From Yuukianura sp. NJ FZ-2021 (Eukaryota), in NCBI GenBank assembly GCA_046563655.1, contig CM102290.1:8122001-8186000 (forward strand): a DNA stretch of 64,000 nucleotides, read 5' to 3'. Under the pieces are notes generated by a model. It searched no databases. It worked only from the letters and a program-made list of their open reading frames with translations, and was not told the origin of the DNA. Positions 21,938 through 55,430 of this stretch are shown here, one piece after another. A program made the position numbers and the translations under genes. Position 1 is the stretch's first letter; every line of letters begins with the position of its first letter.

Positions 21938-24900
21938 TTAGTTCAAGTCACGGTCCTCCAAGTACTGATACTCGAACACGAAACCGTCCTTCTTACGTTG
22001 TCCCCATTTTTCAATGTCGAAGTAGATGTAGGTTCCCTACGAAAGTTAGAAAACGGTCAGACACTACTGGTACTCAATTTGAATTGGACAATAGATTATG
22101 TGTTGCGTATTTCGTAATTCAAAAAAAAATGTTTCTACGAACTTACTTGTTCATACACTTCGTTGATAACTTTAGGCTCTTCGTGGCGCTGAAACCACAT
22201 CATGAACTTGGTATGAAAGCGCCAACTCTGCTTTTTCAAAACTTTGGCAGCCATATATTGAGCACGCGTCCCCTCCAGGTAATAAAAGATGAAAAACAGC
22301 GTTTCGATGGACATGCGGCCGAAGAACTCCAGAGAATCCGAATGGACGAGCGGCGACTGTCACAAATAAAATCATTTTATATTTCAAAACACTGCATTGG
22401 TAATTCCGTGTCAGGGGACATACTTGAGGGTAATAATTTGGAGTTGGAATTGGGTTCCGAGCCAAATACTGACGCAGAGGTTCGGAGTCGGCGAGACATG
22501 GAAGATGGTAATGCGCCGCTTCCAACATTGACAATTGATAATCATGCTTTGGGTGAAGAGGCATTGGGCCTAACGGAGCAACACCAAGCAATGGTGGAAT
22601 GTGAGCCGACGTCGTTGCATCACTGGAGGGACCTAAAAAATCGACACAATGTTTTCAATTCCGAAACACTCCAATATTTCTATACTAACAAAATTCTGTT
22701 TCGAACAACTTGGATTTAGGAAACTTACGCTGGTCAGCGCTGAAGTTTAGTCCGGCACGAGTCATCACTTCTTGTGCCATGGACTTGAGAGTCGTGAGAT
22801 GGGTATCAGGAGCGTCACCACCACCTCCAATGTACTGCTCCATAATAAGTTGTTCTTGTGCCGAGGTGAGGTGAGACGTATGATTGACCGACTGTTGCTG
22901 CGGTTGTTGTTGCAGTTGTTGCTGTTGTTGTTGCTGTTGTTGCTGCTGGACGACGGCCGCCTCTTCCTGTCGTTGCTGTTGAAAAGAAAAATAGGATTTA
23001 GAAATGGTTTTGTTTTGGAAATCGAAAACGACAGAATGCGTTTTGAGATCACATCGAGTTGTTCGAAAATCCTAGTGCAGGAGGCCGAAATTTGGTTATT
23101 AGACTTACTTCCGAGTAAATAATTAAGTCAAACATAGTCATAGTCATCAACTGAATTTTAAATAAAGAATTTATCTTACTCTCTCCTCTTCAAGGGCTTG
23201 ACCTGCAACACGAAGGGCCTCTAGTTCTTTGAGGTTCTTGAGTTGCATTGCATGCGCGTAGCTGACGTCTGGGACACGTTCGTTCCGGAGAGACGTTTCA
23301 TTTTGTAGGACTTGCTCGTTTCGTAGCACTGATTCACTACTGTGTACGACCTTTGGATGCAACACTACCACATTGGAAGAGTTAGTTATAAGACTTGGGC
23401 TAGGAGTCATATGATTACAATTTGAAAGTGGTGCATTGCCTAGAGATGTTAAGTCAAATGAACATTCTCGGTCGATCGCCGAACAATTTTCGGATTGTTC
23501 GGAGCTACCTTGACCTTGTGCTGTTTGGTGGTGAGAAAGGCCGTTTGAGGAATGTGCACTTTCTGGCAGCGAATCACTGGGCGGAGGCACATTCACTGGA
23601 GTGACTTGTGGAGGAGCCAATGGTGGACTTTCTTTCTCGGGAATGAGTTCGACGAACTTTTGATCTTGGCCAGAATTACGACGATTTCGTTTCTTTTTCT
23701 CCAGTTCAGAGAGAAAAGGATTATCATCAATTAGTTCTTGCTCAACACCCTCCATAGTGGAGGGCGTTATAGATTTTTTACCATCAGATGTCGATTGTTC
23801 AGACTGTTGGTCAGAACTTGGCTCTGTAATCTCAGTGGAACTTTGGGGATAAGGACTTACATTGTTTTTACGGGAAACCTTTCCACTGAACCCACCAACA
23901 CTTCCACTAGATGTACTAGGCTTGACTGGTAAAGGCTTCACAATCTTCGCTTCTTCGGAATACGATTTTCGTCGCTCTGACATGCTGCCCTCATACTGTT
24001 GTAAATCTTGCGGTCGATCAAGCGTTTGAAGGGAAGGGGAAAAGTGACCTGTTGTTGTGGGAGTGGAAGGATTAGTGTCCATAACAGGGGTAGGATTGGG
24101 TGATATGGTACTGCTACCTATCCCGCTTCCCAGGATATCATCCAAGAATTCAATGTCATCGTACAGATACTCATTCTCTTCGTATTCTGGATCTTGTCCT
24201 GATTCCAGATAGTAGTCGACGTCTTCTTTAATTTTCTTGACTTGGGAGAGGAACACTGGAAGCTACAAGAATAATAGCAAGATTAGCCGTGTTGCAGAAC
24301 GGTTGAAGTAGTCGCAGTTAAAAGTTAATAAAAGTGTTATAACCTTCTCCTCGTTTGTGATGTTGTCCAGCGTCCGTAAAATCAATTCCAACTTGCCAAT
24401 GTGAAACTTGTGCTTGTCGATGAATCGTCGGTACATGTCCACCTTCTCTTGTTTCTCTTTGTCCATCTTCTTCTTTTTGCACACAGAAACAGAATCGATG
24501 TCGCACTCGAAGCTATCAATCTGCATTTGGATGCTGTCAAGTGTGGTGATGAGCCAGGCATTCAGCTCATCGCGCTCCCGTGTAATTGGATCCGATTTGG
24601 TGGCAAGGCCTAGTCCCTCCTTTGAGTATGCCTTTGTCTTGGTTTCTCGTTCAACAACTTTAAATCGTTCCATTTGCTGGAAATGAAACAATAAAGATAC
24701 ATGATTGGACATATCCAACATTGGAGTTTATCCAATTCTAACATAACTTAAGAAAATGAGTGTCTAAAGGTATAACCAACCGTCTCAATCAATTTTCTGG
24801 TCTCAATCAGAAGCGACTTGTCCTTAATTTCCGCAGAAGCAATCCATACTTTGATTTGGTCCCGCAAACGTTGCAGCTTCTTGATTTCCTTCTTCAGATC

Positions 24901-27111: not shown

Positions 27112-28866
27112 TTTAACAGTATTTTTTTGTTTCACGACTTTATTTGGTATATAAATAAGTCTTTATTCTAATCTAATCTAATTATTACTTTTTTTTTTTT
27201 ACAATTTTATCCGCGTCTCTCTAGAACAGCGCATGAGCAAGGGTTTCTGCCTTCTCATCAAGACTTAACGCGTATGTGAAAATTAAAACTGCCTTAGTTA
27301 ATTCTAATTATGCTATTAGCAACCAGCTTGCTGCGCATGCTAGCTGGGGCTTCGCCCCGGACCCGTTAAATCCTCCTAGTAGTAAACTCTAAGCGTATTT
27401 TCCTTCAAAAGATCCCCGCCATTTTCAATTAAAAAATTCCCATTCTATACAGATTCCAAAATAGCCACTGTTTCTCGCATTTCTTAGAGGCTGAGGCTTT
27501 AGAATTCCACGGGCTTCGTTTTCAGTTTAAATTTTCCAAAAATTTCAAATCCAATCATTCTTAGAAACACGAACTGTTAGTTAACTCTTGAAATCCAACT
27601 TTGCAAAAAAAAAATCGCAAAAGCTCAGGGTGCTGCGTGACACTATCAAAATGTTGCCACGAATGGTGGGATCACGTTTTGGTGGGTTTCATTAGGGCGT
27701 TCATGTGAAATTCAAAAAGAGAAACACTTGAAGTTGAGAAACACGAATCGTTCGATAGCTGGAAATCCAACTTGGCAATTTTTTTTGATTCCGGCTTTAG
27801 CTACTAATCTCAGATTAGGAAAATTTGTAATTCGTGCACAAATGCTTGGTTAGAGAGGTAAAATATCAAATTGTTATTTGTTAAAAAAAGCAAAGGGACT
27901 TCTCCTGCAGTTATCCAGATACGATGAAGATACCGGAGAAAGCACTATTTCGATTTTGCTTAGGGATCATCAGTATGATGCTAGATCCAACAACAGGTAG
28001 GGGGATGATCACCATTGGCTAAATTCTGGATCAGTGTCCATCTGTCACCTAAGGCTTGTGTAAAGTGGACAAATAAACAGTGGAGTCGAAGTGACGCCTA
28101 TTCATTTGCGTAATAGATCCTAATTGAATTCAATATCCTTGTTCAACATACGACACGCTCCAAATCATAATGCCAAATAAACGTTAAAGTCAAATAAGTC
28201 ACAACACTTTCATCTGCTCAACTGGGGGAGGATTCGTCTATCCCTTTGCTTTCCCTCTACGTCCTTTCTCCACTACGTACTAAAACTTTCAAAGTCAAAG
28301 TTATAATGTTCTTTATGCAAAAACCAAAAAAGAGCCGTCTAAAAATTAATTCTCAGCATCAAAACTTTTGCACAAATTTTTCTGGACCACGATCATGCCG
28401 GACTAAAACAACACTTCGCTAGAATGCTAACCTCAAAAATGATTGAAAGCCTGTAATCAACTGCACGGCAGGGGGAAACAAAACTAATAAGCAAACTAAA
28501 AAAAAGTTGCCAGAAAGTTTAGATGCTGCACATCGTTAAAAAAATCCAACCTTACTTCGAATAGTGTCAAATTTTTTCTTACAAAGGTCAGCTAAATGTT
28601 AATGTGATGGTTAAAGTTAGTAAAAGTTCAAGAAATCAGGAAGCTGTGTTAAGTAATTTTTTTTCTGAAATAATTAAAACTTGAATCTAATAGATGGTAT
28701 TTTTTTTTCAAAAAACAAGAGTGAATAACCTGCATTATTTGGATTTGTCATCAATTGTGATATAAAAAGAAATCAAAGTGAAAGCAAGAGAAAGTGGACA
28801 GATTTCAACTGCGTCGTTCTACCCTGGGAACAAATGCAGAATATTTGTTAACGCTCCAGGAACTTT

Positions 28867-30175
28867 TTGGATATTGGGTACCAACATCGTTTGGAGAACA
28901 ATTCCGCCTTCTTTTTACTACGCGCTTCGATCTCAACCCCTCGACTTGTCTACTTCCTTAGAAGCTCACCCATGTGGAAACATACTTCTCATCTCCTGGA
29001 TTATGACATAGCCTTGAAACAATGTTTGGAAGTCACCTTAAACTGCAACTTAACCACCAATTCCTGGGCTCAATCCTCTCTGCCCGTCAACCTTGGCGGT
29101 CTTGGGATCAATCAAGCATGCGAAATTGCCCTACCCTGCTTTTGTGCGTCGTTCTGTTCCAGTAGCAATCTTATCCGTCAACTAGTTCCAAGCCATGTTG
29201 TCGACTCAGATACAGCTTTCAATGATGCTTGCCAAATGTGGTGCCTCCAGCAAAACTCAATACCTATCTCTACCAACATCAATTCACAAAACGCCTGGGT
29301 GAAACCATTTTTCCAGCAGAAACTCAAGAATCTTATACAAAATTCAACCTCGCTGGAGTCCTCTGCAAGATTGAGAGCATGCCAAGAACCACATACAGGC
29401 GCATGGCTACAAGCTCTTCCAGCCAGACAACTTGGGACTCACTTAGATGATGTGGCCTTCCAGATTTCTGTCGGATTACGTCTGGGTTGCAACATCTGTG
29501 AACCTCATCGTTGTCACTGTGGTCAGGAAGTTACTTCTCTAGGACTCCATGGTCTCCATTGTCCCAAGAGTGCCGGAAGATCCTGTAGACATTCAAGTTC
29601 CAATGACCTAATCCTTCGTGCTCTGCGGACAGCTGACACTCCTTGTATTCGCGAACCCCCTGGACTCTCAAGACACGATGGGCGCCATCCTGATGGACTA
29701 ACTCTTGTGCCTTGGAAAAACGGAAAGTCGTTAATCTGGGATTTTACATGTGTCGACACCTATGCACCTTCATATCTCCTACACTCCTCCTCCAACGCCG
29801 GTTACGCTGCACACCAAGCCGAAAATCGGAAGAAATCACACTATAGCAGTCTTTCAAATAACTACATCTTCGCAGCAGTTGCAATCGAGACTACTGGTGT
29901 TTTCGGGAAAGACGCAGTTAAATTTATTCGCGAAATCGGTTCAAGGATCATGAAAATCACAGGCGAAAAGAAATCAACCTCTTATTTATTCCAACGCCTC
30001 AGCATCGCCACCCAACGTGGGAATGCAGCCTCCGTTCTTGGTACCCTTCCCACCGGACATCATCTCACAGAAGTGTTTCTACTATAATCTCAGAATTTTC
30101 AATAACTTTTTCAACCCACATTTTGTGGGTGTAAGTGTTGTTAAATAAAAGATTTAAACTATCGAAAAAAAAAAA
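28867..30175 (+). mobile_element. 5'-truncated CRE-like non-LTR retrotransposon with restriction-like endonuclease
   Basis: Intronless 406-codon ORF with post-RT LPVNLGGLG, zinc knuckle CHCGQEVTSLGLHGLHC, RH, PDG..DFT, AENRKKSHY, AIETTGVFG and FQRLSIATQRGNAASV; AATAAA near 30144 and poly(A) at 30165-30175. The RT core is absent. Confidence 0.88.
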
Positions 30176-45673: not shown

Positions 45674-48600
45674 TCAATTGTTGATGCGAAATGGGCCATT
45701 TGTGCGCAACTCCTGCCGTGACTGGTTGATCTCATCTGGCAACGACGGACAATCCGGAATGTCAAAGACACGAGGATCAGAGTTCATAAGTTCTTTGTTC
45801 TTAGTAGTGACCTTAGTCCGGTGGATCCCCAGAGCCAATGGCGTAAGAGTTTCATACAGATTTGCCTTGCTTTTCACTGTCTTCTTCTCTTTTTCCAAGA
45901 TTTTCAAGTAAGGACACATTTCAATTTTCTCGAGCAAGGGAACACGAATGTTTTCTTCACCTCCCCAAACCTCGAAGATTCTAAATAAAACAATGAATTC
46001 CAATTCAGAGCTAGTACTAACTACCCCCTACAGAATGTTAAGCCCACTTACACTTGAATCAGAGCGCAACCTTGTGGTGACTCCAGCCAGTCTTCCATCA
46101 CGTCCTTCGTAAAACTGTCCACGAGTGTTTTTGCAAATTTCATGCATCCTTCAATTGGAAGTTAAGACAATCATTATTAATCAAATTACTTTAATTCATT
46201 TTTGGAAGAGTCACATTCAGATGCATCAATTATTGATGCTCTAGGATAGGTCTTATTGATAGGACTTACGTTCTTCCATGATCTCTGGCATAATGCCGCG
46301 TGGAGCGTCAAATGCGCCAAGAAATTCTCGGTTGACGACGTCAACTTTTCCCATATGACCAATCAGCCTTTTGACCATCGAAAACGTTCCCCCATTTTGA
46401 ATAGTCATGAACGTCTTTTGTTCAGTTATTTGTTTCACAATTGCGTTGGCGGCAAGCGAAACTTTGGGACCTAAGTATAATTTTATATAAAGTTTAAAAA
46501 GGGAAAACTTGAAAAGCAAAACCACAATTAGGTAACGACGAAATTGACTTACCACGGCAATGTAGCATGATGTGAGCCACGACGGCAGATTGCTGGCTGT
46601 GCTTCACCCATGCACCGGCATGCTCTGCAATTGCTGTCAATAGGTCGTCATTAGCCGCATCAAGCAACTCCCTTCGACGTGTTGTCATGTCCTTCTTGCT
46701 GTGAGAAAATGTGAATGTCAACGTTAAGAATTTATGAATAAATCCAATTCCACCAACAACTAATCAAAACTTGACTTAAACTCTACATATCTCCATACCT
46801 GTGACGATTATTATCTCCTTTGCCCAACAAACTAATCATTTCCGGGGAAAAGTCAGTTGGGTGACGAGGAACGACGAGGTATCTGATGATTTTTCGTCCA
46901 TAGACGGAACCCATTACCAAAGCAATATTTCGCACCAATTCCTTGATGATTACCTATAATTTGGAATAACATAAGAAAACAACTTTTCAAGGAAATTGTC
47001 CACAAATGATCAACATCGTGACCGTCACTCAATATCGCAGAAATCAATTTACGTACTCTTGACGCGAGCATAGTATCATCCAGACTGTCCAAGATTGCTA
47101 GCAGAAGAAGATGTCCAAATTGCTGATTAGCAACATTCGTTACTTGCCCTTTTAGGCCTTTCAAAACCGTCTTCCTAACCTGCAATGAAAAAGGTAAAAA
47201 CAAACGGACATTACGTGAGTTCAATATTCCTGAAATTGAAAATGCTGAATCGCTGGTACTACTACTAACAAATGTGCTCCATGGTTACCTTTGTGCCGCT
47301 GTTCCAGAAAAAGTTCATCACGAACACCGTGCCGCACTTCGTGGAAAGGAAGTCTAGGAATTTCTCTGCGAGATTTAATTCTTCATAAATCTTTTGCACT
47401 TGAGGATTCGAAAGAAGTGAGCAGTATTGGGTCAAAAAGAAATGAACCATGTGATATTTGAGAGACGCAGGATTGTCATCGGCACTGTGAAAAACAATTC
47501 AAAGCCAAAACATTAACTAAGCAACAATTGAGGTTGATTCTGTAGAGTGATACACTTAGAGTATTTAAAACATAATGATAATAATATTACCGCTGGAACA
47601 TGTCTTTGTAGACATAATGAAAGTTGGCTGTCATTTCCCGTAGAACGAGCGGGGAAAATCTTCCCCATTCCACGGCTGTTCGAACAGGTCGCACGTTCGA
47701 GAATTGGTAGGAAGGAATGGCATAATCACCCCCAAAAATGATTGACAAACATTTGAGTCTGTGCTGTTCAGTGTTGACGAGCTGGAAGATGGCTTCTGCG
47801 ACGTCACGACTGCGAGGGTGCGCCATCATCACGGGAAACCATGGTCGAAATGCATTTATGATGGTCTTCTTCTGCTCAGGGTTAGCATGAAGTACAGCCT
47901 TTTGCACGGCATGGCAAGAGTATTTGCTCCAAGTCAGATGGTGTGCATGACTGAAAACGATAACAAAGAGTTACCAAATACACTGCGTATTCATTAAGTC
48001 GTAGCAGTTAACGAAACGTAAGAAGTGTATTTTTTTAGTCCAGGGATATGGACCACTAACCTGCAAACATATAGAACAGCGTCTCTCATTACAGCGGTGC
48101 CTTTAACCATCAAAGTTTCAATCACACGAGACATGTCGTGGGTCCGCAATAACTATCAAAACGAGTAACAACTTGTTAATCATTAGGACAATAATTTCTG
48201 TCTGTATTTGCATTATTTCCAAATAAGAAGGTAACTAATAACTAGATATTTACCTCAGGAATATTATCTTTGATGAGATCAAACAAGGCTTCTGACAATT
48301 GTCGCTGTCTATCAGTTGGACAATCCTTTCGACGTAGATCTTCCCAAATGCTCTTCGCTTCCCGTTCCATGTTGTAAAGAACGTTTCCTTTCTCTTGAAG
48401 TTTTCTCCTCTCCTTCAAGAACTTCTTTACTTGCTTCACTTCACTCCATCTTGCTTGTGCGGTTAACTCTGTCTCCACTCGAGCAACTAGAATTATTGTA
48501 AAGAGATGTAACTGGAATTAGGATGAGAATGCCAAGATAAGGAGGAAGCTGGACAGAATCTATTTAACATATGCGTATTCCAGGTTGCAATTTGCAGCAT

Positions 48601-49307
48601 CTAATAAAACTATTTGAGGAGTCACTAATTCACGACTTGCCTTTCATTGGGGTTGGTTCAGAAGCGTCACTGTCAACTTCGGGTTCAGGCGATGTTGCCA
48701 AAAGTGGTGATGGTAATGGCATTGGCGACGCTGGAAGTACTCTACCAGGCGTTGTTTGCCGTAATCGCAATTCAAAAATCCTCTCCTCTGCAGGAGGAGA
48801 ATTTAGAGAATCGGCGGCAGCTGCTGGTGGTGTTACAGCCAATCTTCTCGGCGGAGTCTGGACACCAGCGGCAGCAGCTCCATGTGGTGCCATAGGAAAT
48901 CTCGGTGGTGTCCTGTAGGCAGCAGCAGCTCCACGCGGTGACACAGCAAATCTCGGCGGAGTCCTGAAGGCAGCAGCCGAAGCTGCTCGAGCCGCGATTG
49001 GAGATCTTCTTGGCGGAGTCCTCCCGTCAGCAGCAGCAGGAGCTGCCACCGGCAATCTTCTTGATGGAGTCCTACCGGAAGAAACGGCAGGTGATGCCAA
49101 TGCCAATACCCTCTGAGGAGTTCTGTTGTTGCGATTACTCGGCGTAAGAATTCTAGCTTTAGCTGCGTTCACCCTTTGCGCCAGTGCGTCCAAGTTCGGA
49201 AGCTCTCGAGGATCTAAATTATTAACATACCCAATATTATTTCGAAAACAACATATACTGTCGGGAATACTATATAAAAAGTAAAACAGGAACTTACCGG
49301 GATCCAT
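45674..49307 (-). CDS. PUM3: Pumilio homolog 3 / Puf-A / penguin (divergent, with repetitive N-terminal extension)
   Basis: AKSIWEDLRRKDC, THDMSRVIE, SKYSCHAVQK, RKTVLKGLKGQV..FGHLLLLAILDSLDDT and SKKDMTTRRRELL match PUM3/Puf6. First exon ATGGATCCCG|gtaagt at 49307-49298. Confidence 0.82.
48820..49125 (-). repeat. Coding minisatellite (~51 bp / ~17 aa) encoding RTPPR repeats
   Basis: Plus strand aatct(t)ctYggYggagtc..gcagcagc recurs at about 48841, 48898, 48949, 49004 and 49054. Confidence 0.8.
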
Positions 49308-49687
49308 TTTTTCTAGTATGCAATCAGAATGGAAATTTACGTGAATTGGTAATTGACGATCAGTGACGAGGACAGTTATCAACTTCTTCCCTCGTATTCA
49401 GAGGAAGTAAAGGCTACCCCTAGACGTCCAACGATTGAATTAGAAGTTTTGCCACTTCAATTAACTAATTACTAACTTAACTATTTTTCTAACAGTGACG
49501 AAAAGGAAATGAAAAATAAGAAGACCCGCATCGGTGAAGACGACGAGGCCGAAACGAGAAATAAAATTGGTTGACATAAGCTTTAGGGCGCCTAAATGTG
49601 CCATTGGTTATCATCAAATTGTACTTAAATGCAGCGTGGGAATTGGGAAATTCAAAGTTATCTCTTTGTTAGCATTGATTACGTATA

Positions 49688-49875: not shown

Positions 49876-50359
49876 GAGATTCGCGTTTGGACTGCAGTAA
49901 GTTAATTGAGTAGTACAATTTACTCACCATCAAGCTTACGTCAACCCTCAAATCATCAGTTGGAGAAAAAAAAACTTTTCCACTGACTGGCCGCCGTGCC
50001 GTTCTTATACGAGGAAAAAAAATTCAAATTTCGCGGCGCAAAGCAGACTCCAGAGAAATGAGCCCCTTTTTTCTGCTCACAGATGGCAGCACTACATCCG
50101 TCCTTATGATAACGGCGTCCACTTTTCACCTTATCATGTCTTAAGTTAATTACATTTAATAACAATTAAATTAAGTTAAACAACCTCATTTCCCAATGTT
50201 GTTAATTATTAGTCTAAAGTCACTCTGAGTTGAGTTAACTGAATCATATATTGCGCATTTAATTAGTATTACAGTATTGTGTAATGGTTCAATTATGTAA
50301 AATATATGAATTGGACGCCCAGTGGAAAAACAGAATTCAAATTCAATTCAACTTCACAG

Positions 50360-52698
50360 TTAACGCACTCTTCGAAGTTGAGGGGACGTGACTAAGCAGC
50401 GATTTCCGTTAAATGTTGGTTCTTCCCTCTTCGGTCGCTGAGGATTCAGCATATTAGCGATTTTTAGTTGACAAGACTCCATAAAGCGCTTCACGTCCTA
50501 AATTAGTTCAAGATAGACACCACGAATTAGGTAAAATTTTAAGATAAGAAAAAGGTGAGAAAGAAAATCTAACCTTGACAGTCGTTCTTAGGGAATTGAC
50601 GGCCACATCTAATGGTTGCGGAATTGTATTTATTGAAAACAGCGTTGTCTCTTGGACAAAAGCACAAGGAATGGTGCATCTTGGACTAGCCAGCCTCCAT
50701 TGCAAATTTTGTATAGCCACAAAATTCATGAGTTGGACTTCAGCGTCAAGGCCTTGTTCCTGGAAATGAAAAGTTTCCTTTCAATAACAAAAAACATACT
50801 GAATGTATAAAATAAACGCTCAAAGACTCACTGAAACTGAAGTCCAGAGTCGAACTCCGATTATATTAATCTCTGCGTCGGCAATGTATAATGTAAGTCC
50901 CGCATTCGGAACAGTAGTCATTTGAACTATAATTCCAACAGTATCAAATTCTCCAAACGAAGGTGAGAAGTCGTCAGCCAGTACGACAGACAATGGAGAG
51001 TACTTTCGGTGCAATCTTTGTAAATGTGCTTTGGTTTGTTGCGACATTGCCAGGGGTTCGAATCGAGTAGCCGCTGAAGAATTTAATCGCAAGTCCAATG
51101 AATTCACAGTTGGATTTAGAGAGGAGATTCCGAATGCAGCACATTCGCGTAGATTATGCGATAAGTCGTCGTGTGGTTTCCAAATTGAGAGCAAGACATT
51201 TCGCGGTGTTGAACTTTGGAAATTATCCTTGGCATCCATAATACGAATCTTTCCAAGTTCAAATCAAAAAGACATAATTTTTTTTTACTGCCAAAGAGTA
51301 AAAACTTTCAGTGAACCAATCAGTGAAAACTTTCAAATACCTTTAGCAATGGCGTCGGATCAGTTTTCTGCAATAAATCCAGTTTGCTATTGAAAATAGA
51401 CTGAATTTTTAAATTGATTTGTTCCAGTTCTTTCAATTTCGCATCTTGCAGTTGATTTATTTTATGTTCAGACAGCAGATCCTGCAAAAATATAAAAATC
51501 CAAAAGTCATTTAATTGCTACGAATAACGAATGAAGAAAAAGTTCATTATGATGTTGGTTAGAACGAACGTCACAGTACAATGATTTTTTCAGAATGATA
51601 AAACTACGAACGGTGACAAATTACCCAGACAAAAGAGTCTTCCCCAAGAGACCGAACAAGATTTAACAGGTCTTCGAGTGGCATTTCTTCCAAAGCTTCT
51701 TTGTTCAGCGTTCTATTAAATGGCATGACTTTACTTTGGTTGGTTAGCTCACTCGCTTCTACTTCCGCCTTCGCTTCAGCATACAATGTCTCCATTTTTG
51801 AACACCGAATTTCTTGCCGTCGTTGCTCATGCTTTTTAAATGACTTCTCACTCTCGAAAACTGAGAAATAGGAAATACTAGCACAGTTATGTTATGCCCA
51901 GTTTTTCCAACGAACGATTTTAGTTTAAGTTGTTGATTACTTACCGTTTCTTCCTTGATCATTCTTGCTCATGAAGGTGATTGGATATATACGCAAAATT
52001 ATGGCATGAACAAGAGGAATCTTGCCACCGGACTGACTAATATGAAGCAAAGGAATTGGATTTGAATCTCCGAAAATGGAATTCCGGTTTCCTTCATCCT
52101 CTTCTTCGTCTGCCAAAAGAGCGAAAGTACTGTCCAATACTTCTTGTTGGATAGATTCATTCTGACTTTCATCCTTCTGTGATTGCATTTCCTGGTCTTC
52201 TTCTTCTTCCTCTTCCAGTTTGAGCTTCTTCTCCGCCGGTGGAATGACTACCTGATCATCGTCATCCTCATCTGAATCATCAGCAATCTCATGAAAAAGC
52301 TTCTTCACTCCTTGTCCTGATTGAACGGTTTTAGCTGGAGGCGGAAACCCAATACTTGGAGTGGATGTTGTAGGGTATGAACTATACCGGCCATGCCGTG
52401 GTGTATTGATGAGTGACTGCGGGTTCGCATCACCTGATTCGGTGTTGGAATGGGAGACTGATTCGGGTTCATCAAAGGATGTTGACGTGGCACCATTGCT
52501 ATCGTCTGATGGAAGTGTAGCGGATTTCGACTGACGAACTGAAAAAGAAGCTGCCGGAGCGTTTTTGATTGAACAATTTGAAGCTTCTGTTATTGGTTTT
52601 GGATCAGTTTCAATATTCTCGAAAAGCTTCTTTGCCTTCAGCAAGGCTTTGTCGGATACTTGAACATTTTTTCCACTGGCAGTTTGGAACCCCACCAT
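50360..52698 (-). CDS. BRCA2: Compact BRCA2 homolog (one BRC repeat + OB2/tower + OB3), about 625 aa, 6 coding exons
   Basis: BRC repeat GFQTASGKNVQVSDKALLKAKKLFENIE; OB2 start PIPLLHISQSGGKIPLVHAIILRIYPITFM; tower FESEKSFKKHEQRRQE..METLYAE; VLLSIWKPHDDL; OB3 FSPSFGEFDTVGIIV..LYIAD. Confidence 0.9.
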
Positions 52699-53655
52699 AA
52701 TTGTTTTAGCGGGTACTTAGGTAACGGTTCAGTTGTGGACCGTTGGACCGAAGATACCTTGATTCTACCGTCGTCACGTCGACTTGCAAACGCAAGCGCT
52801 GTCGACCGGCACTACGTTTCAAGAACGTAAATAGCAGAATGATGCAGTAACTTAAAAACCTGAAAGAAATGTAAGAATGACAGACAAGAAATCAGTCAAA
52901 TGTAAAATCGCTAGTTACATTGTCCATAAATACTTTCAATTGATTTACCAAATCCACTGCTGAACAACTGGTACTAGGCATCAACAGTCATCTCATCGCA
53001 GAAATCGATAGAAACAAAGACAAACACGTAAAGAACGCAGCAACAACAAAATGAAACACAATTCAATTAGGAAAAAAAACGAGGAGGCCTTTGGTAATTC
53101 TTTCTTTATCAATTCAATTCAATTGATCATTGGTTTTGACGTAGGAGTTCAAAAATATCCCGCCTTCCCAGTCGCGCCAAGAAGCGCGCGAATTGCTTTT
53201 CGAAATTATTTGCCAATTTTTTGGATAAAAATAAAGGGGCTTCGCTAAAGGTCGGATGTCTTCAAATTTACATGAGGGGTGCATGCTGTCAATCTTGCGA
53301 GTCGCAAGTTGCGACACTTTACTAGAAAAGATGTTTAGTAAAAACGTTACGACACCTAACCATTGAAATATAACTTCAAATTCCTAGATTCACGAGCGAC
53401 TGCTCTTATGTTACTAATTTTTAAGACTCTGATGAGTTCGAGCTAAGCAATGTTACAAATGCGAGGAATTCGATGTGACAGTATGTGGTACATTATATGC
53501 GCCCATCATACTAGATCCGAGGAATCCGAAATCCGACGTTTAGCAGACCCCAAGTAAAGTCAAAATTGTTAAACTTTCGAATTGATTTGATAATCATTCA
53601 CATTACGATTTAGCAAACAACCTTACCTTACCTATCGTTAAAAACTAATTGATTG

Positions 53656-55430
53656 ATGGAGAAACCGACGATTATTTTGGATAATGGTGGAGGGTGTTTG
53701 AAGTACGGCTTTGCCAACGAAGAGAAACCGGAGTGCAGGTAGGTTGTTGTGGTTGTAATTAATTCTCTTTTTACCTTGTAATCGATCAGGAGGTTAACTA
53801 ATTACAGTTCACGACGCCTAGTAAAAAAATGAAATACAATATCAATTAATTTTGAAATCTTTCGAAGATTGATGCCAAACTGTATCACGAAGTCACGCAG
53901 CGAACGACGCCGACCGTTCATTGGGCGTCAACTGGAGGATTGCAGGGACACTTCCGGCTTATTCTATGTTCTTCCATTCCAAAAAGTAAGAGCAATGGCA
54001 ACTTCCGGTTTCTTTTTCCAAAGCGCCATTCGCTTGCGGATCGTGCAATACATGTGTGAATTTTTTATGTAGGGTTATTTATGTGCCCCAGATACGCAGA
54101 AGATCATCTGGGACTACCTTTTTGGACCAGAGTGTCTGGGAATAAATTCTATAGAAGCAAACATCCTTATTACGGAACCGGTTCTAAATTTTGTCTCGGC
54201 ACAGGAAGTTATGTGCGAGCTCTTGTTTGAAGAGTACGATTTTTCGGGTGTTTGCAGAACTTCAGGTACTTTCAAACGACTGGTACGATTTTTATTATCT
54301 TATAAAGACTATATTTGTACTTCTTCGCCTCGATGTAGCACCACATCTCACAGACTACAAGTTCTCAATGGATAACCCTGCTGATATACTATGCAGCTTA
54401 GTCGTCGACAGTGGTTACAGTTTTACTCATATCGTTCCGTTCATTAACGGTCAAAAAATTGACGAAAGTGTTCGTCGTATTGACGTGGGAGGAAAAGTTC
54501 TTACAAATTATTTGAAGGAAGTCCTTTCATACAGGTAAATTCTTTTGATATAATAGAAATGAAGCCATGTAATAGAATTTGGTTGATTTCTTTTGATAGC
54601 ATTTTGTGTGTTACAGACAATTGAACGTTCTAGACGAAACGTACTTGGTAAACAATGTAAAGGAAGAGCTTTGTTTTGTTTCTACCGATTTGAAGAAGGA
54701 TTTCGAAACTGCAAAGTGTCGGTTACCGGAAAACACTATTCTTAGGGAATATATACTTCCAGATTACAGCAACGTTAGAAAGGGGTACGTCCGTCCACTC
54801 GAAGAAACTGGGACGAAACCAGCGAGCAATGATAACTTCACGCAACAGGTGAAGATAATGTGTTAACGCTGAATACTTGTTCGGTAATAGGACCAAAGAA
54901 TATAATAATGTGTCGGAATATTTCGGAATTTCAGTTGCTGAAAATGAATAGCGAGCGATTTACAATTCCAGAAGTACTGTTCCATCCTTCTGATGTAGGC
55001 ATTGACCAGATGGGGATTTCCGAAGCAATTGTCTCTGTTATTCGTTCATTTCCGGAGAATATGCATCCACATTTGTTTAACAGTATAGTGTTATGCGGTG
55101 GTAATGCCAAGATACCTGGATTTGCCGAGCGCGTAAGAGAAGATGTTCGAAAAGAGTCATCTTTCTACTATGATGTTTGCGTTCACTGTGATGAAGAGTA
55201 AGTACTTTTGAAAAAAAACATATTAACGTCATTTCACATTCAAAACTTAAAAAAAATTGTATATTAGTTCTTTTATTTATGAAATCGTTTTTAATTTCAG
55301 TCCTACCATATACGCCTGGGAAGGAGGAAACAAGTTCGCATTTGACCCCGAATTTAGCAAATTATTGGTGACAAAGCAACAGTACAACGAGTGTGGTTTA
55401 TCTGCGTTCAAATCCAAATGCGACCTGTAG
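53656..55430 (+). CDS. ACTR6: Actin-related protein 6
   Basis: [107 protein letters not shown]. Confidence 0.96.

Follow-up and report, generated by a model that had tools for sequence, protein, structure and literature searches.

We report a BRCA2 gene on the minus strand of a 64,000-nucleotide stretch of DNA from Yuukianura sp. NJ FZ-2021 (contig CM102290.1, positions 8,122,001 to 8,186,000; hereafter the window), whose 623-residue product joins a single BRC repeat to a probable OB2 with tower and to OB3. The helical domain (HD) and OB1, which canonical BRCA2 proteins carry before OB2, were found neither in this protein nor anywhere in the window, contigs of two studies support the assembly at the position of the missing region, and three springtail proteins share the layout. 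We put at about three in four the probability that this compact and apparently intact gene is the BRCA2 orthologue of a springtail-like hexapod whose lineage has lost about 425-580 residues, comprising the helical domain, the region ahead of it and OB1.

The gene occupies positions 52698-50360 and has six exons, with GT-AG at every intron; as read from the window sequence, its 1872 spliced nucleotides encode 623 amino acids (aa), stay in frame across all six exons and end with TAA at 50362-50360. Exon 1 begins with an ATG at 52698 and is uninterrupted up to the GT donor after 51945, within a stop-to-stop frame of 52716-51937. A first-pass annotation of the window had described one unbroken exon from 52698 to 51945 that runs from BRC into OB2, and both its frame and its coordinates were as described. 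Furthermore, the exon junctions were gap-free when the 623-aa protein was aligned with three springtail relatives, which lends the six-exon model support from homology. Domains were assigned with Pfam, run on each exon translation separately and reported down to E<=10, with AlphaFold2 (AF2) models, and by alignment to two proteins: P0001, the BRCA2 of the mosquito Ochlerotatus camptorhynchus (1720 aa; precomputed Pfam matches to HD, OB1, OB2, OB3 and BRC), which was the sole match of a word-indexed search with exon 4, and P0003, the Allacma fusca relative. The exons, and the elements within exon 1, are as follows.

51945..52698, minus strand: exon 1, 251 codons plus 1 base, running from the start codon through the BRC repeat and the disordered, acidic linker into the first strands of OB2 (open frame, Pfam, P0001 alignment, AF2).
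52621..52692, minus strand: the one BRC repeat (residues 3-26, GFQTASGK...KKLFE; PF00634), which has an FxxA and an LFE module.
52057..52611, minus strand: linker, residues 30-214, predicted to be disordered and acidic in its second half (composition, AF2, no Pfam family).
52108..52143, minus strand: conserved post-BRC motif EVLDSTFALLAD, residues 186-197 (aligned in four springtail-type proteins).
51945..52056, minus strand: what is left of the OB1-OB2 linker, then the first strands of OB2 (PIPLLHISQSGGKIPLVHAIILRIYPITFMSK...), aligning to P0001 from residue 1252 onwards and to the segments that follow OB1 in 13 canonical proteins.
51625..51860, minus strand: exon 2, the first of the tower helices and the tip of the tower (aligns to the P0001 tower region and to P0003 at about 466-540, which is helical at high predicted local distance difference test (pLDDT) scores).
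51341..51481, minus strand: exon 3, returning tower helix (aligns to the P0003 helix 546-578 and to P0001).
50832..51248, minus strand: exon 4, the second half of OB2, passing into OB3 (PF09104, sub-threshold PF21318; 70 phmmer relatives).
50574..50759, minus strand: exon 5, remainder of OB3 with the NLQWR motif (PF09104 profile positions 62-120).
50360..50497, minus strand: exon 6, a short tail at the C-terminus (...TSPQLRRVR), closed by TAA (frame and stop evident from the sequence; tail aligns with Allacma).

The N-terminal BRC repeat of residues 3-26, which had already been recognized in the first-pass annotation, matched PF00634 with an E of 1.4e-12 (47.2 bits, the cut-off being 20.3). 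It aligned to every BRC repeat of P0001 and weakly matched the BRC4 peptide chain 1n0w_B (E 0.043). OB3 was detected by PF09104 in two parts, both over the 24-bit cut-off, in exon 4 (E 9.2e-11, profile positions 1-58) and in exon 5 (E 9.5e-09, profile positions 62-120). The exon 4 match to the OB2 family PF21318 fell short of its threshold (16.4 bits where 27 are required, E 0.0078), and the Pfam Tower model matched no exon; as this model, at E<=0.01, recovered no more than 2 canonical BRCA2 proteins out of 15, its blank here means little. Using blastp, we aligned spliced residues 224-601 with residues 1252-1623 of P0001, which comprise OB2, tower and OB3, at 27% identity (E 1e-36). The conserved OB2/OB3 landmarks RIYP, LSIWKP, FGEFDTVG and NLQWR are all retained. 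The OB3 matches over the Pfam cut-off bear out the earlier proposal that OB3 is kept, and the P0001 alignment supports it for OB2 and the tower. Its placement of the OB2 start also proved sound: PIPLLHISQSGGKIPLVHAIILRIYP, at the end of exon 1, aligned in P0001 with the linker between OB1 and OB2 and with the strands that open OB2, and the stretch following OB1 lined up with it in 13 of 13 canonical proteins. At the other end of the protein, exon 6 gave no match to the C-terminal TR2/CTRB family (PF22687) at E<=10, and its short S-P-containing tail aligned with the Allacma tail TPPLVRRIQ.

The loss of the helical domain and OB1, the central claim of the first-pass annotation, was upheld by Pfam, tblastn and a dedicated profile. 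No exon translation matched the helical domain (PF09169) or OB1 (PF09103) at E<=10, so that the Pfam scan returned BRC and OB3 without either of them. The region of P0001 at about 860-1250 had no counterpart in the window protein by blastp or in the 64-kb window by tblastn; the tblastn search with P0001 recovered only the BRC and OB2-OB3 regions, plus two chance matches (E 6 and 8.8). We also searched with a custom HD-OB1 profile made from 13 canonical proteins, all filters being switched off. All 7 held-out canonical controls were matched at E<=5.5e-37, none of four springtail-type proteins (the window protein, P0003, P0013 and P0021) was matched at E<=100, and the best E among 2846 six-frame open reading frames (ORFs) of the window was 1.8. 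The possibility that HD-OB1 is encoded elsewhere as a separate protein, which joins in trans with DSS1, appears highly improbable, as the 64 kb around the gene contain no HD/OB1 signal and the literature searched offers no precedent for such a split.

The stretch from BRC to OB2 lies within exon 1. Because it is one exon, the helical domain and OB1 are absent even if upstream exons exist. Such exons would alter the count of BRC repeats: if the 5' end of the gene model is incomplete, they would add BRC repeats or an N-terminal region, and the single BRC repeat would be an under-count, with HD/OB1 still absent. In favor of this idea, the relatives extend further at the N-terminus and carry several BRC repeats (P0003 and P0021 have 4 stretches apiece), only 6 codons separate the exon 1 ATG from an in-frame stop above it, and the AG at 52717-52716 is a possible acceptor for an upstream exon. 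We nevertheless consider it unlikely, since the six frames of the window contain one BRC-like site, to which all BRC repeats of P0001 map, in keeping with the single repeat first described, and since an actin-family gene on the other strand starts about 1.4 kb upstream.

We next consider what lies between BRC and OB2, where the first-pass annotation had seen about 190 low-complexity residues. A disordered linker of about 185 residues is indeed present, but EVLDSTFALLAD within it is a conserved BRCA2 motif and not mere low complexity. Disorder-promoting residues make up 81% of the linker and aliphatic or aromatic ones 18%, and D/E account for 29 of the 75 residues at 140-214. The AF2 model of exon 1, based on a 15-row alignment, contained the BRC hairpin and helix at pLDDT 77-88 and no globular domain; outside BRC, pLDDT was mostly <50, and a single helix, at 170-200, was modelled there at low confidence. 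HD plus OB1 take up 279-316 residues in 13 canonical proteins, more than the 185 residues of the linker.

In the three springtail proteins, EVLDSTFALLAD aligned with EILYSSKALLDD, EVAECTRILLED and EINESTRILLED. A small profile of the motif located the same motif in canonical BRCA2, between the BRC repeats and the helical domain. The clearest canonical cases, with domain E of 2e-4 to 0.04, were locust P0008 (position 1149), thrips P0016 (1591), and P0061 (2019), P0062 (1244) and P0064 (476); weaker look-alikes were seen in rows that cluster with opossum. In canonical arthropod BRCA2, the interval from the last BRC repeat to the helical domain carries the pattern E[VI]xx[SE][ST]xx[LF][LM]xD followed by acidic residues. 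To our knowledge, no function has been assigned to this motif. Its distance from OB2, counted to the RxYP landmark, was 50, 54, 57 and 54 aa in the four springtail-type proteins as opposed to 476-633 aa in the five canonical ones. The simplest reading of this contrast is one internal loss, of about 425-580 residues, in a common ancestor of the four. The idea that the acidic linker serves as an in-cis mimic of DSS1 was set aside, because the same motif is present in canonical BRCA2 proteins that have HD and OB1.

To place the protein among its relatives, we used exon 4 as a phmmer query against 1.84 billion representatives and obtained 70 matches at E<=0.001. All of those with at least 600 aa, 22 of the 70, were scanned with Pfam. 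Nineteen were BRCA2 and three were not; among the 19, HD and OB1 were both found in 15, one was a fragment starting in OB1, and three contained neither domain while having BRC and OB3. These three came from the springtails Allacma fusca (848 aa, CAG7838181.1), Orchesella dallaii (822 aa, CAL8115586.1) and Orchesella cincta (1086 aa, ODN04083.1), and they were among the four best-scoring matches of any length. Their sequences are public and are annotated only as BRCA2 or 'OB3 domain-containing'. The canonical matches that carry names were from mosquitoes, locust, thrips, a bug, a stomatopod, amphioxus and opossum. Shorter matches were rejected as additional examples, since nearly all of them start inside OB2 or the tower and are uninformative on what precedes OB2. 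A word-indexed search with residues 428-821 of P0003 returned P0003 itself and no further springtail species.

A maximum-likelihood tree computed from 30 rows of the OB2-OB3 region grouped the window protein with the three springtail proteins in a clade of 98/95 support, as expected of orthologues. Identity between the window protein and these relatives was about 21-29% (at best 29% over 381 columns), suggesting that it most likely comes from a springtail distant from the annotated ones. The window itself carries the gene for subunit 3 of the CCR4-NOT complex at 23174-24727 (minus strand); the top four matches of its exon were Folsomia candida (two entries) and two Orchesella species, by small margins, which supports a springtail origin of the window.

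The AF2 model of P0003 (66-row alignment) contained four BRC hairpin-helix units, a segment of pLDDT <50 at residues 224-409, and a region at about 425-820 that was mostly >90. The latter consisted of strands, a long helix pair (469-505 and 546-578) with a small helical tip, and more strands, an arrangement of OB fold, long helical hairpin and OB fold in the part homologous to the putative OB2-tower-OB3 of the window protein. Foldseek returned the BRCA2-DSS1 structures 1miu, 1iyj and 1mje as its best matches (E 6e-23 to 6.5e-20). In a sequence search, P0003 430-816 matched only residues 401-781 of the 817-residue chain 1iyj_B, and the first 400 residues of that chain had no counterpart.

The branches of the springtail clade were long, at 1.1-1.2 against a median of 0.42, as would fit a diverging duplicate. 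The genome might then also contain a canonical BRCA2 with HD and OB1, and the compact gene would be a truncated paralogue, an extra copy with a specialised role, for example in meiosis. BRCA2 duplicates are known in some lineages, Arabidopsis having two copies (passages of PMC8121103). Our results make such an origin distinctly unlikely: the only named springtail proteins among the 70 exon 4 matches are the three without HD/OB1, the named canonical matches include 0 springtails, and the same layout occurs in two springtail orders, so that a canonical copy would have to have been missed in all of them.

The first-pass annotation had also raised an assembly deletion near 52080-52110, and contigs from runs X1, X2 and X5 all bridge this junction without a gap. 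Those of X1 and X2 each span 50200-53100 in one piece with no joints, and the X5 contig, from another study and under another organism label, covers 51995-52298 with 0 gaps, across 52080-52110. X5 is independent, and X1-X3 may be the window's own source sample and hence not independent. Among the 40 differences listed, 22 were coding, 14 of them synonymous and 8 non-synonymous, and of the 12 indels listed, 9 fell in introns, 2 beyond the stop and 1, an in-frame insertion of 3 bases, in exon 4; there are 5 more differences and 8 more indels beyond these. The in-frame insertion, from run X2, lies at 50914 (TGT on the plus strand) in the OB3-coding part of exon 4 and is apparently an allele in the same sample.

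These results bear on whether the gene is a decaying pseudogene or an assembly artefact. Its high divergence from all relatives, with a best identity of 29% over 381 columns, would be consistent with either, but we find both scarcely credible. The six-exon frame is intact and has canonical splice sites, the OB2/OB3 landmarks have survived, synonymous differences outnumber non-synonymous ones by 14 to 8, the frame-breaking indels among those listed fall only outside exons, and the contigs of the two studies agree.

How might a BRCA2 protein of this form work? We propose that the internal loss has joined the BRC region and the post-BRC motif directly to OB2-tower-OB3. The single BRC repeat would hold RAD51, and the OB2-OB3 tandem would bind single-stranded DNA (ssDNA), deliver RAD51 to resected ends and nucleate it there. 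OB2-OB3 is described as an ssDNA-binding tandem, and in isolation the human OB2-OB3 binds ssDNA with a dissociation constant of about 270 nM and shows little or no binding to double-stranded DNA (dsDNA) (passages of PMC11329725). HD-OB1 binds ssDNA as well as dsDNA and is kept shut by DSS1, which is wrapped around HD and OB1 and extends across the OB1-OB2 interface; masking the dsDNA binding of HD-OB1 has been argued to be the task of DSS1 (PMC11329725). This platform for DSS1, together with its dsDNA binding, is absent from the window protein. An intrinsic ssDNA preference would be expected of such a protein and, as there is no HD-OB1 to mask, DSS1 would not be needed. We infer that the protein binds RAD51 and ssDNA, that it is the sole BRCA2 gene product of the genome, and that it possibly acts independently of DSS1.

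Several points weigh against an intact orthologue with an internal loss, or against parts of this reading. The absence of HD and OB1 covers the spliced protein and the 64-kb window, and a canonical copy or a separate HD-OB1 gene could lie elsewhere in the genome. The springtail relatives are automatic gene models, ten long phmmer matches without a species name fall outside the springtail clade in the tree, and the long branches of that clade could reflect long-branch attraction. The possible acceptor at 52717-52716 would allow an upstream exon, and the further differences and indels mentioned above lie outside our counts. Some residual contact with DSS1 is conceivable as well, since DSS1 crosses the OB1-OB2 interface.

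Compared with canonical BRCA2 (human and mouse, mosquito P0001 and locust P0008), the window protein has in common BRC, the post-BRC motif, a probable OB2 with the tower insertion, and OB3, in the same order. It differs in having no helical domain or OB1, one BRC repeat, a length of 623 aa in place of 1700-3400 aa, and no Pfam TR2 match in its tail. With the proteins of Allacma fusca, Orchesella cincta and O. dallaii it shares the layout without HD/OB1, a motif-to-OB2 distance of 50-57 aa and membership of one clade, whereas those proteins have several BRC repeats, longer N-termini and 822-1086 aa. Brh2 of Ustilago maydis keeps the N-terminal half of the DNA-binding domain (DBD), i.e., the helical domain, OB1 and OB2, together with the Dss1 link, and has lost the tower and OB3. 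The window protein keeps the opposite half of the DBD, although one BRC repeat and a pair of OB folds are present in both.

Other reduced forms are known. Brh2's single BRC repeat and its pair of OB folds are recorded in passages of PMC8121103, as are the 394-aa BRC-2 of C. elegans, a RAD-51 nucleation factor with 1 BRC repeat and a single OB fold, and the Drosophila BRCA2, which has no OB fold. BRC-2 indicates that one BRC repeat and one OB fold can suffice (PMC8121103); it resembles the window protein as a mini BRCA2 with a single BRC, but has one OB fold where the window protein has two and a tower. Moss BRCA2 has no DBD, and two classes of BRCA2 have been proposed, with and without a DBD, DSS1 perhaps being dispensable for the DBD-less forms (passages of PMC12412785). 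The forms of Drosophila and mosses are, like the window protein, natural departures from the canonical DBD; they have lost the whole of it, while the window protein keeps half and is in this sense intermediate.

Engineered human proteins offer a further comparison. The construct OB23 (residues 2808-3192) equals the folded part kept in the window protein and binds ssDNA alone, and miBRCA2 (BRC4 + DBD + CTRB) indicates that one BRC repeat and a DBD are enough for mediator activity in vitro (PMC11329725). Unlike the window protein, miBRCA2 retains HD-OB1, and it works best with DSS1 (PMC11329725). The passages of PMC11329725 describe no construct that combines BRC with OB23. Likewise, the full-text literature searched, including that on springtails and with subscription journals and supplements outside its scope, contained no description of a BRCA2 with OB2-tower-OB3 but without HD-OB1.

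We see even odds that springtails as a group have replaced canonical BRCA2 by a sole 'half-DBD' form (BRC, post-BRC motif, OB2-tower-OB3) that loads RAD51 without DSS1. If true, this form would constitute a third class of natural BRCA2 architecture, next to the DBD-bearing and the DBD-less one, and a natural experiment showing that an OB2-OB3 core binds ssDNA and that HD-OB1 with its DSS1 clamp is a regulatory addition which can be dispensed with. It would add an intermediate to the sorting of BRCA2 orthologues into those with and without a DBD (PMC12412785). Most pathogenic human BRCA2 missense variants cluster in HD-OB1 (PMC8191791), and a lineage in which exactly HD-OB1 is deleted, with OB2-tower-OB3 kept under signs of constraint, would provide a natural test of the DSS1-masking idea. 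A 623-aa, probably DSS1-free BRCA2 could also be easier to handle in biochemistry and structure determination than the 3418-aa human protein, and the post-BRC motif, which has survived the deletion, merits study.

The window contains further genes besides BRCA2 and CCR4-NOT subunit 3. A 411-aa open frame on the plus strand at 28852-30084 matched no Pfam family at E<=0.001. Downstream of BRCA2 and on the same strand, the ORF at 48633-49397 (minus) belongs to a separate gene for a proline/alanine-rich protein with repeated RTPPR/FRTPPRF units, and about 48300-48500 resembles a continuing coding exon of this gene or of a further one. The same ORF was considered as a TR2-like last exon of BRCA2 and rejected, as it has its own ATG and a first intron near 49306, and no Pfam match at E<=10. 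On the other side of BRCA2, an actin-family gene encoding an actin-related protein (about 54073-54538, plus strand; Pfam Actin 2.9e-08 and 1.7e-11) stands head to head with it, and the intergenic gap of about 1.4 kb leaves room for a shared promoter region.

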